This document shows positions 44,582-49,938 of a DNA stretch of 64,000 nt, piece after piece. Each line of letters opens with the position of its first letter. The stretch's first letter is position 1. The stretch is from Candidatus Aenigmatarchaeota archaeon. GTDB lineage: Archaea; Aenigmatarchaeota; Aenigmatarchaeia; QMZP01. The stretch lies in NCBI GenBank assembly GCA_016783545.1, contig JADHWJ010000004.1:27513-91512 (forward strand), read 5' to 3'. A program made the translations under genes and the position numbers. The notes below the pieces were generated by a model, which searched no databases, had not been told where the DNA came from, and saw nothing but the letters and a program-made list of their open reading frames with translations.

Positions 44582-45196
44582 ATGCCTAATACACAAGATA
44601 TAGTAGTTGTGGATATAGATGGTACAGTAGCAGACTGTTGCGAGAGAAAATTCAAATCTTTGCATGATTCTGGTGTACATATCCTGGAAACCGAGGATTT
44701 TTTTGTTGACTCGCATTTAACACCAGAGCAATTGAAGACATTTCTTTCCATATTCCTTTCCAATAAATATATTCATTTAGATGAGCCAGTTCCATATGCT
44801 GCAGAAGTTCTTCAAAGACTGGAAAAATCTGGAAAAAGAATAGTCTATCTTACAGCTCGCCATGATTCTGATTCTGAAGACTCTATGAGATGGGGAACAA
44901 TTCAGTGGTTGAAGAGGTATAACTTTCCCCTTGACACGGATCACCTATTCATGAAAATTGATAAAGGCGAGAGTAATAGGGAATGCAAAGAAAGAGAGAT
45001 GAGAGAGATATCAGGATTAGGAAACGTTTATGCTGGTATAGGAGACATGAGAGAAGATGCGGACGTTTATTTAAAATTTACTAGTAATTGTGTATTATTG
45101 ACAACCTTTCACCCAGAAAGCGAGTATGAAGGATTAGACAAAAGAGTAAAGCTTGTGGATGATTGGCAACAGATAGGAAGATATTTAGGAGTTTAA
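44582..45196 (+). CDS. HAD-superfamily phosphatase
   Basis: Motif I VVVDIDGTV, motif II YLTAR, motif IV GIGDMREDAD. Confidence 0.6.
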   Translation: MPNTQDIVVVDIDGTVADCCERKFKSLHDSGVHILETEDFFVDSHLTPEQLKTFLSIFLSNKYIHLDEPVPYAAEVLQRLEKSGKRIVYLTARHDSDSEDSMRWGTIQWLKRYNFPLDTDHLFMKIDKGESNRECKEREMREISGLGNVYAGIGDMREDADVYLKFTSNCVLLTTFHPESEYEGLDKRVKLVDDWQQIGRYLGV

Positions 45197-45910
45197 ATGT
45201 CACCTGAACGTTCAGTTGAATTTTTTGGAGAAGTGCCAAAAGCGCTTTGTAAAAGCAAACTTGTAGTTAGTCATCTAAGAGATGTTGCAAGAGAATTGGG
45301 AGACAATACCCTAGAACAAGGATTTAGTGGTGTTGCTGTTCCAGATGAACTTGGACCATACCTATTAACATTATATATGAACGAAGTAATGATGGATGCA
45401 ATGGACAGATTACAATGCCAGGGCGCATCTCTTTTCCATGAAGGTCCTGATGAAGATTATTTATATGGTTGTGTTGGTTCGATATCTGACAGACTTAGGG
45501 TTAGGAACATATCTGCTACAAAGGCAACAACCGTCATTAAAGTAGGAAAACAATCCCCGGATAGATTTACTCCATTATGTTGGAGAGAGAAAAGACCAAT
45601 GATTTCAATTTCACCTGGCGCAGAAGAAGATATTTCACTAGAAGTATACAATACCACTACTAATGCGTTAGAAGAAACAAGACCAATGAAAAGCAGTAGC
45701 AGGGATAGTAGTGTTGACGAAGGTACAGGAATTAGTACAAGTAGCGCAATTTATGTTCCTGTTATGGTAGGCAATTCCCCGTATGGTGTAGTAAGGGCCT
45801 ATAGAACCAGTGGAGATAGGTTTATTGCTGATGATGTACCTAAACTTCTAAGACTGGGAAAAGAAGAGGCACCACTTTTTGAGTTATTTCACAGAGTTTA
45901 TGGGGAGTAG
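45197..45910 (+). CDS. hypothetical protein (possible GAF-like C-terminal region)
   Basis: 237-aa ORF whose start abuts the HAD stop. VPVMVGNSPYGVVRAYRTSGDRFIADDVPKLLRLG resembles the end of a GAF domain. Visibly less AT-rich than its neighbours. Confidence 0.3.
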   Translation: MSPERSVEFFGEVPKALCKSKLVVSHLRDVARELGDNTLEQGFSGVAVPDELGPYLLTLYMNEVMMDAMDRLQCQGASLFHEGPDEDYLYGCVGSISDRLRVRNISATKATTVIKVGKQSPDRFTPLCWREKRPMISISPGAEEDISLEVYNTTTNALEETRPMKSSSRDSSVDEGTGISTSSAIYVPVMVGNSPYGVVRAYRTSGDRFIADDVPKLLRLGKEEAPLFELFHRVYGE

Positions 45911-46022: not shown

Positions 46023-48725
46023 ATGAAGAAGATTTTCCTAGTTATATTACTATCGCTAATTCTCATACCTAATGCTGCATATGCTGAGATTGTTATAAAC
46101 ACGTATTCTGATTCCCAATATTATGGGCCTACCAGCATTTTCAGTGAAGGGCCTGTTTATTTTACAGTAAGTGATGGAAGTTATTGTTGCGATAAGACAG
46201 ACGTTGTGATTAAAAGCCAGAATGAGAACATAACAGTTGCTGCATATGACAATGGTATAATACCAGATAAAGAGCCAAATGACGGTATTTTCTTCGGTGT
46301 TTTTCATATAGGAGAGGGCCTAGCAGATAGTGCTATAAATTATATACGCTCAGAAACAGATGAAGCTCTTGAAATACATGTTTCATTTAGCAGAATATCC
46401 TCAGGGAATAGGATTATATACACAGAATTCAGCAAGCCAGTGGCTGTAGAGTTATCAGCTGAATTCAGAGACAATGCAGTGACATTAAACTGGAATCCTT
46501 CATCTGACATATCTGGCATAAAAAATTATATTGTTTATAGACATACTGAGAAATTCTCAGAATCTGATATAAGCAGAATCAGTTCATTTATGACTGAAAA
46601 TACAAGTTACATAGACAGATCGATAGAAGATGGTAAAATCTATTATTATTCTGTGATACCTGTAGATAATCTGAACACAAAGGGACAGTTCTCAAATATT
46701 GTTGAGATATCTACACCTGATATCACAGCTCCTAAATCCATAACAGATTTACATTATACGCAATATAGAGGAGAGGTCACGCTAAAATGGAACAGACCAT
46801 ATGATAATGTAGGTATTGCAAAATATCTTGTCTATAGGGATACCCTTTCAATTGAATCCCCAGAAACACAGATACCTTATGCTGAGACAGATAATATAAT
46901 CTATATTGATAAAAACACAAATGATGGAGAAAGGTTTTACTACGCTGTTTTTGCTGTTGATACTTTGAATAATATTGCAAGACCGTCCAACAATGTTCTT
47001 GTTGAAATAGATAAGACACCTCCTGAAAAAATCACTGACCTTGAAGCACATCAGAGAAAAAACGGAGAGATATTTTTGAACTGGTCAGGATCAGACATGT
47101 ACAGAATATATTATTCTATATATCCAATCACATCTGTTAATGGATTAAGTAATGTCATCATTAACGAAAGTACATTTTCAGATTTTCCAGAAAAGCCAAT
47201 GTATTACACTGTTTCTGCAATTGATGTTTATGGAAATGAAGCAGAGAATTCAAATATTGTGTTTGGAGATCCAGATGACATATCACCAAACCCACCTGAA
47301 AATCTAAACGCAATAGCATATTCAAATGGAACTGTTTTTCTTTCATGGGATCCATCTGGTTCCCAGGATGTGATGTATTATGATGTCTACAGAACAAGAG
47401 AAAATGAGTATGTTCATATTACCCGGACAGACGAAAAAAGAGTTTTTGATAGAAATATAATTCCTGGAACATATCATTATATTGTAAAAGCAGTTGATGG
47501 TGCTGGTAACGAGGGAGAAAGTTCTGTTCAGGTAAATGTCATAGATACTGAAATAAATCTTATTATACTCCATCCTCAAAATGACATATCTGTTTCCCAA
47601 GCGCAGATACTTGTTCTTGGTAGTGTGGATACTGACGCTGAAATAGAAGTTGAAAATAACGGCATTGTTTTTGATGCCATGATAAGCGAGAATGGAAATT
47701 TCGCTGGATATGCAAACCTCAGTGACGGTGAAAACGAATTGAAGGTGAAAGCAACAGATCCTGCGGGAAATAGTAAAGAGCAGAAGTTGAAAATAACCAA
47801 TAGGTATGTTTCAGCATCAACTGATGCCAGAAAAAAAATTCAGGAATATATAGGAAAAAATATAACATTTGATAATACACTATTCGATGAATTAGTAGAA
47901 TCTGATCCGTCTCTTTCAGGTTCAGATATGTTCACAACATATGTTTTCACAAGAACCACAGAAATAGTAGGATTTGTTATTTTGATTATTCTAGTAGTTG
48001 TAGTTATTGTTTTCCATAAAAAAACAAAGAAAGAGATAGTCAAAATTGTCGGAACAAAACTAAAATATGAATATGATGAAAAGAGCAGGCTAAAAAACGC
48101 TGCAACAAAATATATATCAGCAATACCTTCTGAGATTATAAGAGGCGTGAAAAACCTGAGGATTAAGAGAGTTGAAAAAGAAGCCACTGTTCTTTTTGCA
48201 GATATAAGAGGATTTACAAATCTAGCATCCAAGCTTGGTCATAATAAAACAGCAGATATGCTTGATATATTTTTCAAGGAAATGGCAGATATTATTATAA
48301 AACATGGTGGTTCAGTGGCAGAATATGTTGGTGACAGAATATATGCAACATTCAACCTGAACAAAGAATGTAATAATCACTCTCACAGTGCTGTAAAAAG
48401 TTCTGAAGAAATGCATGGTGTTGTAAAAGAACTGAATAAAAAAATATTCGGGGTTGATAACAAAATGCAGATAGGTGTTGGTATAAAAACAGGAAAATTG
48501 GTTGCAGGTACTATTGGACATCCAGAAGCATTAAAATATGCTGCTGTTGGTGATGTTGTAAATATAGCATCAAAACTTTCTGATAGTGCAAATGCAGGAG
48601 AGACAATAATAGATGAAGATACCTACAAAGAAATAAAAGATAAAGTAAATGTGATAAGAAATTCAATCACTTTAAAGGGTGGAAAAGTGATAAACGCGTT
48701 CAAAATATTATCTTTGAAAGAATAA
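46023..48725 (+). CDS. receptor-type class III nucleotidyl cyclase: signal peptide, ~4 FN3-like repeats, Ig-like region, TM, cyclase domain
   Basis: Repeats with WNPSSD...YIVYR, KWNRPYD...YLVYRD and LSWDPSG...YDVYRT. TM IVGFVILIILVVVVIVF. Cyclase motifs ATVLFADIRGFT, EYVGDRIYATF, GVGIKTGKLVAGTIG, GDVVNIASKL. Confidence 0.7.
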   Translation: MKKIFLVILLSLILIPNAAYAEIVINTYSDSQYYGPTSIFSEGPVYFTVSDGSYCCDKTDVVIKSQNENITVAAYDNGIIPDKEPNDGIFFGVFHIGEGLADSAINYIRSETDEALEIHVSFSRISSGNRIIYTEFSKPVAVELSAEFRDNAVTLNWNPSSDISGIKNYIVYRHTEKFSESDISRISSFMTENTSYIDRSIEDGKIYYYSVIPVDNLNTKGQFSNIVEISTPDITAPKSITDLHYTQYRGEVTLKWNRPYDNVGIAKYLVYRDTLSIESPETQIPYAETDNIIYIDKNTNDGERFYYAVFAVDTLNNIARPSNNVLVEIDKTPPEKITDLEAHQRKNGEIFLNWSGSDMYRIYYSIYPITSVNGLSNVIINESTFSDFPEKPMYYTVSAIDVYGNEAENSNIVFGDPDDISPNPPENLNAIAYSNGTVFLSWDPSGSQDVMYYDVYRTRENEYVHITRTDEKRVFDRNIIPGTYHYIVKAVDGAGNEGESSVQVNVIDTEINLIILHPQNDISVSQAQILVLGSVDTDAEIEVENNGIVFDAMISENGNFAGYANLSDGENELKVKATDPAGNSKEQKLKITNRYVSASTDARKKIQEYIGKNITFDNTLFDELVESDPSLSGSDMFTTYVFTRTTEIVGFVILIILVVVVIVFHKKTKKEIVKIVGTKLKYEYDEKSRLKNAATKYISAIPSEIIRGVKNLRIKRVEKEATVLFADIRGFTNLASKLGHNKTADMLDIFFKEMADIIIKHGGSVAEYVGDRIYATFNLNKECNNHSHSAVKSSEEMHGVVKELNKKIFGVDNKMQIGVGIKTGKLVAGTIGHPEALKYAAVGDVVNIASKLSDSANAGETIIDEDTYKEIKDKVNVIRNSITLKGGKVINAFKILSLKE

Positions 48726-48786: not shown

Positions 48787-49938
48787 CTATATGCCACGAG
48801 TTTGCCTATTTTCTTCGCTCACCTTGCCCGTAGAGGGCTCTATTGCATTCCCAAGGACTTTTTTAACATTAATATCTAGTCCTTTTCTCAATTCATCTCC
48901 TTTATTCTCTTTTGAAAAGAAATCCATCTTTGCAGCAAGGCTAATCTTTGCTGCAATTAATCTTGCAATTTTTCCTTTTACCTCATTAGGAGCATTTTGT
49001 ATATGTTCATGCCCAAACAAAATCCCAAATTTAGGAGCCTTGAATCTTTCCTTGTCTTTCATATGCCTGAAAAGAGCTTTCTCAGAACCCAATAGTTGTA
49101 TTGTAGAAGATGGCATCTTAGCAATCTTTTCCAACCCGCCTGCAATTGAAAGTAATCTTGCAGCAAGCAAAGGGCCTGCAACAGCGCTTATATTCGGAAT
49201 AATCTTATTACATGAAGATTCTATGTATTTTTCAAGGCTAGTCTTCACAACATATAGTTCAGAAATAGACCTTGCTATACCCTGAACCTCTTTAATATCA
49301 TCATCAGAAAAATCCATACCAGCAGAACTTTCCACATATTTGGCAAGTTCACCATCTCTTATATTATCCCTTCTTCCGTGCTTATAGACAATATCTGCAT
49401 ACTTCTCATTAGTTTTGATTATCTCCCCCATTTCAGGAAAATGAAGACCATACCATTCCTTAAGTCTTTCTGAAATTACATTTACTTCCTTTGTTATTTC
49501 ATCTAAAATACCAATAGCGTGCATAACTATTTCATCTTTTCTAACTTTTTTTATCTCCCCTTTTGCTAGTAAAATATTCACTTTTGAGAGCAAATCATTG
49601 ATCTCAGCTTGAGACATGGCCCATTTAAGATGAAGAGCAAGACTTCTGAATTCATCATTGAGTTTTTTGGCTGCTATATTATCAACCACATGTATGCAGG
49701 ATATGTCTTTATATCTCATATCTTTTTTATCCCATGCAATTTCCTTAAATCCGCAAGAAATTAAATTTTTAAGAATCTCTTCTTCTTCGTGTAGAATTTC
49801 ACCTTTCCTTGATTTCGAAATCCTTTCTGCTATAAGTTCGGCTTCTTTGGGGAAAAGTCTTTTGTCTAATATTTTCCCGTCTTTATCAAAGGCGAAGACG
49901 CCCATGATGTTTGTTGCCATGAAAGCTCTAAATTCCAT
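48787..49938 (-). CDS. nop5: box C/D sRNP core protein Nop5 (Nop56/58)
   Basis: AGPLLAARLLSIAGGLEKIAKMPSSTIQLLGSEKALFRH...PKFGILFGHEHIQ. Confidence 0.85.
   Translation of the reverse strand: MEFRAFMATNIMGVFAFDKDGKILDKRLFPKEAELIAERISKSRKGEILHEEEEILKNLISCGFKEIAWDKKDMRYKDISCIHVVDNIAAKKLNDEFRSLALHLKWAMSQAEINDLLSKVNILLAKGEIKKVRKDEIVMHAIGILDEITKEVNVISERLKEWYGLHFPEMGEIIKTNEKYADIVYKHGRRDNIRDGELAKYVESSAGMDFSDDDIKEVQGIARSISELYVVKTSLEKYIESSCNKIIPNISAVAGPLLAARLLSIAGGLEKIAKMPSSTIQLLGSEKALFRHMKDKERFKAPKFGILFGHEHIQNAPNEVKGKIARLIAAKISLAAKMDFFSKENKGDELRKGLDINVKKVLGNAIEPSTGKVSEENRQTRGI

Follow-up and report, generated by a model that had tools for sequence, protein, structure and literature searches.

Class III nucleotidyl cyclases work as head-to-tail dimers, each active site, of which the interface holds two, being composed of the Asp pair from one chain and of residues from its partner that contact base, ribose, and phosphate. 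In the membrane-bound bacterial members, a short helical transducer preceding the catalytic domain relays the conformation of the sensor. Receptor cyclases of eukaryotes, namely the natriuretic-peptide receptor (NPR), GC-C, and the trypanosomatid receptor adenylyl cyclases (ACs), join an extracellular binding domain across a single transmembrane (TM) helix, and through a helical linker, to a class III cyclase that acts as a dimer. A 2023 review stated that no enzyme making, degrading, or sensing 3′,5′-cyclic AMP (cAMP) or cyclic GMP (cGMP) had been characterized in any archaeon, though the molecules have been detected (PMC10249747). Here, we describe a gene from a Candidatus Aenigmatarchaeota archaeon (assembly GCA_016783545.1, contig JADHWJ010000004.1) that almost certainly encodes a surface receptor with a class III cyclase domain. 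The gene is an open reading frame (ORF) of 900 codons at 46023..48725 on the + strand of a 64,000-nucleotide stretch of that contig (positions 27,513 to 91,512; hereafter, the window), and its 900-aa product is labelled P0001.

The enzyme family, the FN3 fold, and the logic of a receptor cyclase are already known. What is new is the joining of a DPANN adhesin-like FN3/Ig rod to a class IIIb cyclase (three such proteins were found among the matches listed), its occurrence in an archaeon, and a Glu of the guanylyl cyclase (GC) type at a specificity position. On balance, we lean toward reading P0001 as a contact- or ligand-regulated, homodimeric class IIIb receptor cyclase that possibly prefers GTP, its activity, ligand, regulation, and product all being predicted.

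Architecture and topology of P0001

The C-terminal part of P0001 is a class III nucleotidyl cyclase catalytic domain (residues 719-900 plus the stop codon; 48177..48725, +), assigned from PF00211, PDB alignments, and a 46-sequence cyclase alignment. More specifically, residues 719-891 match PF00211 (Guanylate_cyc) with an E value of 2.3e-21 and 76.6 bits (cut-off, 21.9). When residues 696-900 were compared with the PDB by phmmer, 56 cyclase sequences were matched at E<=0.01, including Cya2 (2w01; 1.4e-25), P. aeruginosa CyaB (3r5g; 1.5e-23), and Rv1625c (1yk9; 1.1e-16). The Y-x-S segment of the class IIIb transducer element is present, and the best PDB matches, Cya2 and CyaB, are both IIIb, subclasses IIIa and IIIb being reportedly defined by Linder & Schultz and by Ziegler et al. 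2017. A cross-match to the GGDEF diguanylate cyclases (PF00990; 17.6-21 bits) falls below the cut-off of 23.8, and a GGDEF motif was not found in the sequence.

A Kyte-Doolittle scan of the whole protein revealed two hydrophobic segments only. The first, an N-terminal stretch (4-24) ending in AYA/E, marks a signal peptide (residues 1-21, MKKIFLVILLSLILIPNAAYA followed by E; 46023..46085, +), and equivalent N termini are conserved in all family members. The second is a single TM helix (residues 648-665; 47964..48017, +; mean hydropathy up to 3.18), followed by a basic HKKTKKE stretch that is consistent with a positive-inside topology. Together, the signal peptide and single TM helix place the N-terminal 626 residues outside the cell and the C-terminal 235 inside.

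The extracellular part begins with a beta-sandwich (residues 22-138; 46086..46436, +) that carries a vicinal Cys55-Cys56 pair and an NDG-F-G-F motif; AlphaFold2 modelled its strands over residues 24-134 with a predicted local distance difference test score (pLDDT) of ~75-89, and a faint "choice-of-anchor X" NCBIfam match covers residues 74-95. C55, C56, G88, G92, and F94 are invariant in a 10-member family alignment, as are the FN3 core residues. Four tandem FN3 domains follow (residues 139-231, 232-331, 332-421, and 422-508; 46437..47546, +), as identified by repeat alignment, Pfam, AlphaFold2, and Foldseek. PF00041 (fn3) scored 37 bits (cut-off, 25), and the repeats (139-508) align on a Trp in strand B, Y-x-V/I-Y-R in strand C, and YY-x-V-x-AVD-x-GN-x-S across strands F-G. 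Consistently, the model contains four beta-sandwiches over residues 144-506 (pLDDT ~85-92), and Foldseek retrieved tandem FN3 arrays from the PDB at E values of 1e-21 to 1e-12 (gp130/OSMR, LAR, PTP-sigma, contactins, and fibronectin). The next domain (residues 509-595; 47547..47807, +) is Ig-like, of the Big_13/Glucodextran_B type, with matches above cut-off to PF19077 (41.5 bits) and PF09136 (35 bits) over residues 513-593, where AlphaFold2 also placed strands. A low-complexity, helical stalk (residues 596-647; 47808..47963, +) leads to the membrane; it has a D-P motif and a membrane-proximal T-G/T-T motif that are conserved in the family alignment, and it was modelled with low confidence as short helices at 603-633.

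On the cytoplasmic side, a juxtamembrane helix (residues 666-718; 48018..48176, +), recognized by alignment and in the model, carries a cyclase-transducer-like KYISAIPSEII segment. The latter aligns with the Y-x-S...V...L-G-G block found directly N-terminal to the catalytic domain of CHASE2, HAMP, and GAF cyclases, and a continuous helix spans residues 650-699 in the model, again with low confidence. The AlphaFold2 model was built on the 10-sequence family alignment, in which only three sequences cover the cyclase part; overall pLDDT was ~80-92 for the ectodomain, and the cyclase part was modelled, with moderate confidence only, as the beta-alpha-beta-beta-alpha-beta core.

A first-pass annotation of this stretch had given the position and length of the ORF exactly and had proposed a signal peptide, about four FN3 repeats, an Ig-like segment, one TM helix, and a cytoplasmic class III cyclase, all of which are borne out by the above data; the cyclase motifs that it quoted are present. 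It had staked the cyclase call on a match to Guanylate_cyc profiles, which lies well above threshold, and on the two metal-binding Asp residues, both of which align. The additional N-terminal beta-sandwich with its invariant Cys55-Cys56 had escaped it.

Catalytic and specificity residues

Residues were assigned using the three PDB alignments and the 46-sequence alignment. Both metal-binding Asp residues, D727 (in FADIRGFT) and D771 (in VGDRIY), align with their counterparts in 2w01, 3r5g, and 1yk9, and each occupies an invariant column of the 46-sequence alignment. The gamma-phosphate Lys, K885 (L-K-G), is present, the key residue set also includes R729, and the D-I-R-G-F-T phosphate loop is intact. 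Of the Asn-Arg transition-state pair, the catalytic Asn is kept as N847, and the Arg, found in 43 of the 46 sequences, is replaced by K851 (AAA, 48573-48575; NIASKL). This Arg-to-Lys change had already been pointed out in the first-pass annotation; it recurs in all three PDB alignments, in the 46-sequence alignment, and in an independent metagenome, yet the closest ortholog, P0002 (see below), keeps the Arg. A 345-aa soluble cyclase from a genome of the same family (G007; L002 1003-2040) likewise has Lys for the transition-state Arg (NIAAKIE), together with Glu at the second specificity position, so that the Arg-to-Lys change arose at least twice in the same archaeal family.

The AC type was defined by a Lys that precedes the G-D motif together with, at seven residues N-terminal to the catalytic Asn, an Asp in IIIa or a Thr in IIIb, and the GC type by a Glu at the Lys position with Cys, Ser, Gly, Ala, or Thr at the second (after PMC7384201 and PMC4215837). 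At the Lys position, P0001 has E767 (GAA; AEYVGD, versus DEFMGD in Cya2 and DKFVGD in CyaB), and at the Asp/Thr position it has A840 (Gly in Cya2, Thr in CyaB). By sequence criteria only, this pair of a Glu and a small Ala is of the GC type and not of the AC type. What mainly determines GTP choice in GCs is the Glu-N1/N2 bond, the second residue being variable (PMC7384201). Glu at the Lys position occurs in P0001 and P0002 and is absent from the other 44 of the 46 aligned cyclases. The first-pass annotation had called for an inspection of the ATP- versus GTP-specifying residues, which has thus yielded a GC-type Glu767; its own account of the catalytic motifs had passed over both Glu767 and Ala840.

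Three fused proteins within a surface-protein family

Homologs were sought by a word-indexed search of 5.8 billion clusters, using the C-terminal region as query, and by an exhaustive phmmer search of 1.84 billion representatives (best 150 matches). The former returned one close homolog, P0002, a 902-aa protein of the same domain layout and with 56% overall identity to P0001, whose gene lies on a 4.8-kb metagenomic contig, and its remaining matches were CHASE2-, HAMP-, or GAF-linked bacterial-type cyclases (28-36% identity). The latter returned P0046 (944 aa, 36% identity over residues 2-898), again of the same architecture. Among the matches listed, the fused ectodomain-cyclase proteins found are these three (P0001, P0002, and P0046), and a profile of the three recovered no further one. 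Giant FN3 proteins dominate the best 150 matches, and unrelated FN3-plus-cyclase fusions may exist elsewhere in bacteria. P0118, considered as another FN3-cyclase, was rejected, as it is bacterial and has three cyclase domains and no FN3.

Most members of the ectodomain family have no cyclase. These proteins of 684-791 aa match P0001 only over the signal peptide, N-terminal domain (with its Cys-Cys pair), four FN3 domains, Ig-like domain, stalk, and TM helix (30-34% identity); unlike P0001, they end a few to ~50 residues past the membrane helix and are presumably plain surface-anchored binding proteins. They include MBI4895247.1 (from a "Candidatus Aenigmarchaeota archaeon" metagenome-assembled genome [MAG]), P0053, P0058, P0063, P0067, and P0070, and another cyclase-less member than MBI4895247.1 comes from the Tara 0.1-0.22 micrometre size fraction. 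Also shared by family members is a short (I/F)-T-G motif that abuts the C-terminal TM helix on its N-terminal side, with a basic tail beyond the helix (alignment columns ~745-760). The motif is degenerate in P0001 (FTTY, window 47940-47965), and in the cyclase-less members the motif and tail resemble an archaeosortase-like C-terminal sorting or anchoring signal.

No true member of the ectodomain family was found in 60 same-order relatives, in which generic FN3 matches only were obtained. PF00211 occurs once in the source genome (E<=0.01). Of 61 close relatives, 7 have it, as do 17 of the 371 genomes that represent the phylum, and the architecture of P0001 was found in none of the others. Class III cyclases are therefore uncommon there, not absent, and the expectation of the first-pass annotation that surface-sensing cyclases of this design would be uncommon in archaea agrees with these counts and with the three fused proteins. 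The cyclases of the relatives are of other architectures: 345-aa soluble, CHASE2-cyclase, 2Fe-2S-ferredoxin-cyclase, and cyclase-ATPase-TPR. In two genomes of the same order (G046, L004 1063-2055; G043, L005 1486-2391), a 2Fe-2S-ferredoxin-type domain (CGG-x-CSTC) is fused to a canonical K/T/N/R cyclase in a protein of ~300-330 aa, and its gene adjoins a Xaa-Pro peptidase-like gene in both.

A maximum-likelihood tree of the cyclase domain unites P0001, P0002, and P0046 in a single clade (93/91 support), apart from the cyclases of same-order genomes; the stem leading to P0001 and P0002 is long (1.22 substitutions per site). At the two specificity positions, the catalytic Asn, and the transition-state position, respectively, P0046 has the canonical class IIIb set K/T/N/R (DKFIGD; T, N, and R in FTAIGEPVNVAWR), P0002 has E/T/N/R, and P0001 has E/A/N/K. 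The single clade, whose most distant member, P0046, keeps K/T/N/R, points to an old fusion. The simplest history has four steps: the surface-protein family would have been present first, one fusion to a class IIIb AC-type domain would have followed, a Lys-to-Glu switch would have occurred on the P0001/P0002 branch, and lineage-specific changes would have come later.

Genomic setting and candidate signaling partners

The assembly comprises 886 kb in 18 contigs and is ~70% complete, and the window lies within a 97-kb contig. The G+C content of the cyclase gene (0.337) matches that of the window (0.343). Archaeal housekeeping genes flank the cyclase gene, namely aRF1 (with an intein-like insert) and Nop5/56, and its immediate neighbors are an orphan ORF (45197-45910, +) and Nop5/56. 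The latter (48787-49938, −) is convergent with the cyclase gene across a 61-bp spacer, and on the contig of P0002 (L008 267-1391) it lies upstream of the cyclase gene, in tandem, with a 20-bp spacer; the adjacency is thus kept and the orientation differs, implying a local inversion. An archaeal origin of the gene is supported by aRF1 and Nop5/56 on the same contig and by the family member from an Aenigmarchaeota MAG, the named protein MBI4895247.1, which is the only independent support found for the link to Aenigmatarchaeota. Contigs from a marine metagenome of a different study are identical to the window over 48082-48725, and across the parts of the gene that they cover, the sole difference is C>T at 47907, which changes Pro629 to Ser (P629S) in the stalk. 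Since the E767 (GAA) and K851 (AAA) codons are reproduced in these independent contigs, they are not assembly errors. Among the sequencing runs found to hold the gene, none was an RNA run.

The orphan ORF encodes 237 aa and lies 112 bp upstream of the cyclase gene. It was evaluated as a GAF-type receptor of cyclic nucleoside monophosphates (cNMPs) and was not retained: its GAF_3 and GAF_2 matches (residues 165-215) are sub-threshold (E 0.015 and 0.05). Neither the 5.8 billion clusters nor 60 relatives yielded a homolog of it, its single-sequence fold has a pLDDT of 36, hhalign against a GAF-containing alignment gave a probability of 2.3%, and it is not linked to the cyclase on the contig of P0002. 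Upstream of it lies a gene for a HAD-superfamily phosphatase, PNKP-phosphatase/NT5C-like (window 44582-45196, +), whose stop codon is immediately followed by the first codon of the orphan ORF, which makes co-transcription of the two probable.

At the locus of P0046 (L017 4055-6890), the cyclase gene adjoins genes for a 417-aa HATPase_c protein and a 472-aa GAF plus HD-GYP protein (HHERLDGSGYP). This arrangement suggests a local signaling gene cluster and is a hint that, in the organism concerned, the signal may be sensed by GAF proteins.

The source genome also encodes a 124-aa PilZ protein (G000:C7:41892-42191, −; locus L023 1456..1830) with a PF07238 match of 33.3 bits (cut-off, 22.5) and both cyclic di-GMP-binding motifs (RRRYRR and DLSTGG). 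No GGDEF protein was found in the ~70%-complete source assembly apart from the weak cross-match on the FN3-cyclase itself. Four relatives (G019, G023, G043, and G046) have true GGDEF proteins and no PilZ; we do not treat this pattern as a link to the cyclase.

Discussion

In the reading toward which we lean, P0001 would be a type I receptor that crosses the membrane once, in a tiny, symbiont-type archaeon (DPANN, Aenigmatarchaeota-type). Its rod-like ectodomain, made up of the N-terminal beta-sandwich, the four FN3 domains, and the Ig-like domain, would be displayed on the cell surface; it is shared with cyclase-less, membrane-anchored proteins whose presumed role is adhesion or binding. Binding of a ligand, either soluble or surface-borne, to the ectodomain would shift how the TM and juxtamembrane helices pair or rotate, and with it the output of the cyclase; we infer such a ligand-driven change in helix pairing from the homodimeric requirement of class III enzymes and from the retained KYISAIPSEII transducer. 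We consider it somewhat more likely than not that the cyclase is active and, if so, that it prefers GTP. With Glu767 replacing the adenine-selecting Lys and Ala840 beside it, the most likely product would be 3′,5′-cGMP, or a mixture of cGMP and cAMP, and not cAMP alone.

Several observations weigh against this reading. The transition-state Arg is Lys in P0001, and the phosphate loop of P0002 reads FADIREFM instead of FADIRGFT (G730E/T732M), though its Arg is kept; the two orthologs are therefore off consensus in different catalytic motifs. All three fused proteins lack an Arg that is otherwise largely conserved (the A836 column), AlphaFold2 confidence is moderate in the cyclase domain and low for residues 826-860 (covered by three sequences), and the long stem leading to P0001 and P0002 might be due to a loosening of constraint no less than to a switch of specificity. 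Regarding the substrate, K101E mutants of Ma1120 still prefer ATP by kcat/Km (PMC4215837), and Glu alone is thus no guarantee of GTP specificity. In addition, the search for cNMP-binding effectors that the first-pass annotation had recommended came back empty: the cNMP-binding domain PF00027 had no match in the ~70%-complete source genome or in six cyclase-positive relatives, and neither a confident GAF domain (the sub-threshold orphan ORF being the sole candidate in the source genome) nor an HD_5 or HD-GYP domain was found in the source genome or in cyclase-positive relatives.

Part of this evidence would fit a pseudo-cyclase, i.e., a domain that keeps the fold and dimerization with little or no catalysis and serves as a dimerization, scaffold, or nucleotide-binding module of a surface adhesin or receptor. 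The R851K change in P0001, the G730E/T732M changes in the phosphate loop of P0002, the replacement of the base-contacting Lys by Glu, the loss of the Arg at column 836, the long branch, and the non-detection of candidate cNMP receptors or phosphodiesterases are all in line with this explanation, as is the fact that most family members manage without a cyclase. Typical dead cyclase domains, however, lose the Asp residues, and P0001 has both of them intact along with Asn847, K885, and the D-I-R-G-F-T loop; moreover, the Arg-to-Lys substitution is a conservative one. Cyclases that lack the Asn and/or the Arg and are nonetheless active do exist. More specifically, XC_0250 of Xanthomonas campestris, in which Leu and Ala replace the Asn/Arg pair and Ala occupies a specificity position, is an active GC in vitro (PMC3770947), and Ma1120 is active without the Asn (PMC4215837), so that Lys851 need not inactivate the enzyme. 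Conservation points the same way. It was gauged by per-domain identity, synonymous sites being saturated at 56% amino-acid identity, and between P0001 and P0002 it amounts to 62% for the juxtamembrane segment and 60% for the cyclase, compared with 43-65% for the ectodomain modules; the cytoplasmic part has thus diverged no more than the ectodomain, which argues for selection acting on it. We regard a pseudo-cyclase as the main rival, if an unlikely one.

Next in standing is an ordinary receptor AC that makes cAMP, or a promiscuous purine cyclase in which the Glu/Ala pair brought no switch to GTP. The ancestral state of the family is the canonical class IIIb AC set seen in P0046 (K, T, N, and R), the nearest homologs are CHASE2, HAMP, or GAF proteins of the AC type, and cAMP is the cNMP consistently detected in archaea (PMC10249747). 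Evidence from Ma1120 cuts both ways: K101E alone lowers AC activity by 92% and raises GC activity ~4-fold, practically abolishing AC activity at neutral pH, and K101E double mutants are ATP-preferring or impartial (PMC4215837). Given that both orthologs have the Glu, which none of the other 44 aligned cyclases shares, and that the best structural relative by sequence, Cya2, is a GC with Glu at the same position, we consider this explanation rather improbable. A Pycsar-like defense cyclase making cyclic CMP or cyclic UMP is most improbable and membership in that system (soluble cyclase plus effector operon) essentially excluded, because the PADLOC PycC matches (best, 88.3 bits) are generic, canonical K/T CHASE2 and HAMP cyclases scoring equally or better (84-96 bits) on the same models, and, despite the non-canonical purine-specifying residues, there is no adjacent effector gene, no PF00027 domain was found in the genome, the neighbors are housekeeping genes, and a secreted FN3 ectodomain with a TM helix is unlike known PycC proteins.

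Compared with described systems, P0001 as a putative receptor cyclase is closest in its catalytic domain to Cya2 of Synechocystis sp. PCC 6803 (PDB 2W01), the class IIIb GC that is the best match by sequence among solved structures (E 1.4e-25; identity ~35-40% over the domain). Both have Glu at the Lys position, a small second residue (Gly in Cya2, Ala in P0001), both metal Asp residues, and the Asn. In contrast, Cya2 has no FN3 ectodomain and keeps the transition-state Arg, preceded by a Tyr that boosts GC activity (PMC4215837), where P0001 has Ser-Lys. The closest sequence relatives outside the family are bacterial class IIIb ACs of the CHASE2, HAMP, or GAF type (e.g., CyaB, 3R5G; 28-36% identity), in which a juxtamembrane Y-x-S transducer and a catalytic unit of homodimeric design also occur, and whose K/T/N/R set is found in P0046; their sensors are multi-pass CHASE2 or cytoplasmic GAF domains, whereas P0001 has a single-pass FN3/Ig rod and E/A/N/K. 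As described in the literature, XC_0250 resembles P0001 in having a class III domain with the two metal Asp residues, in placing an Ala where substrate is specified, and in departing from the canonical transition-state pair (PMC3770947); unlike P0001, it is cytoplasmic and linked to a cNMP-binding GGDEF effector, XC_0249, a partner of a kind not found for P0001.

The eukaryotic receptor cyclases share with P0001 the succession of ectodomain, one TM helix, helical linker, and class III cyclase. Pfam, however, shows neither an ANF-receptor ectodomain nor the kinase-homology domain of NPR and GC-C in P0001, in which 53 residues separate the TM helix from the catalytic domain, and the cyclase is of the prokaryotic class IIIb type. 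Likewise, the ectodomain fold is like that of FN3-rod cytokine receptors (gp130, OSMR, and LepR) and receptor protein tyrosine phosphatases (Foldseek E 1e-21 to 1e-18). This resemblance to eukaryotic receptors is one of convergent architecture, not of family membership: an FN3 rod, one TM helix, and a cyclase parallel the eukaryotic receptor cyclases and cytokine receptors and are of independent origin.

A bolder form of the receptor-cyclase reading, to which we assign a low likelihood, is that P0001 is the first receptor GC of Archaea, in which a DPANN adhesin family, one class IIIb fusion, and a later Lys-to-Glu switch would have produced a contact sensor that reports attachment to a partner cell as cGMP; that cell-cell contact could be coupled to cNMP signaling had been put forward in the first-pass annotation. 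As no CAP/CRP-type, confident GAF, or HD-GYP proteins were found in the ~70%-complete genome, such a cGMP signal would need a new type of effector. More broadly, with its intact metal site, GC-type Glu, and outside-in topology, P0001 constitutes a defined candidate for an archaeal cNMP synthase. Comparison partners are at hand in P0002 with its Arg, P0046 with its AC set, and the cyclase-less relatives, making specificity and activity directly testable. For DPANN biology, the protein suggests how a surface adhesin might be coupled to intracellular signaling in contact-dependent organisms.

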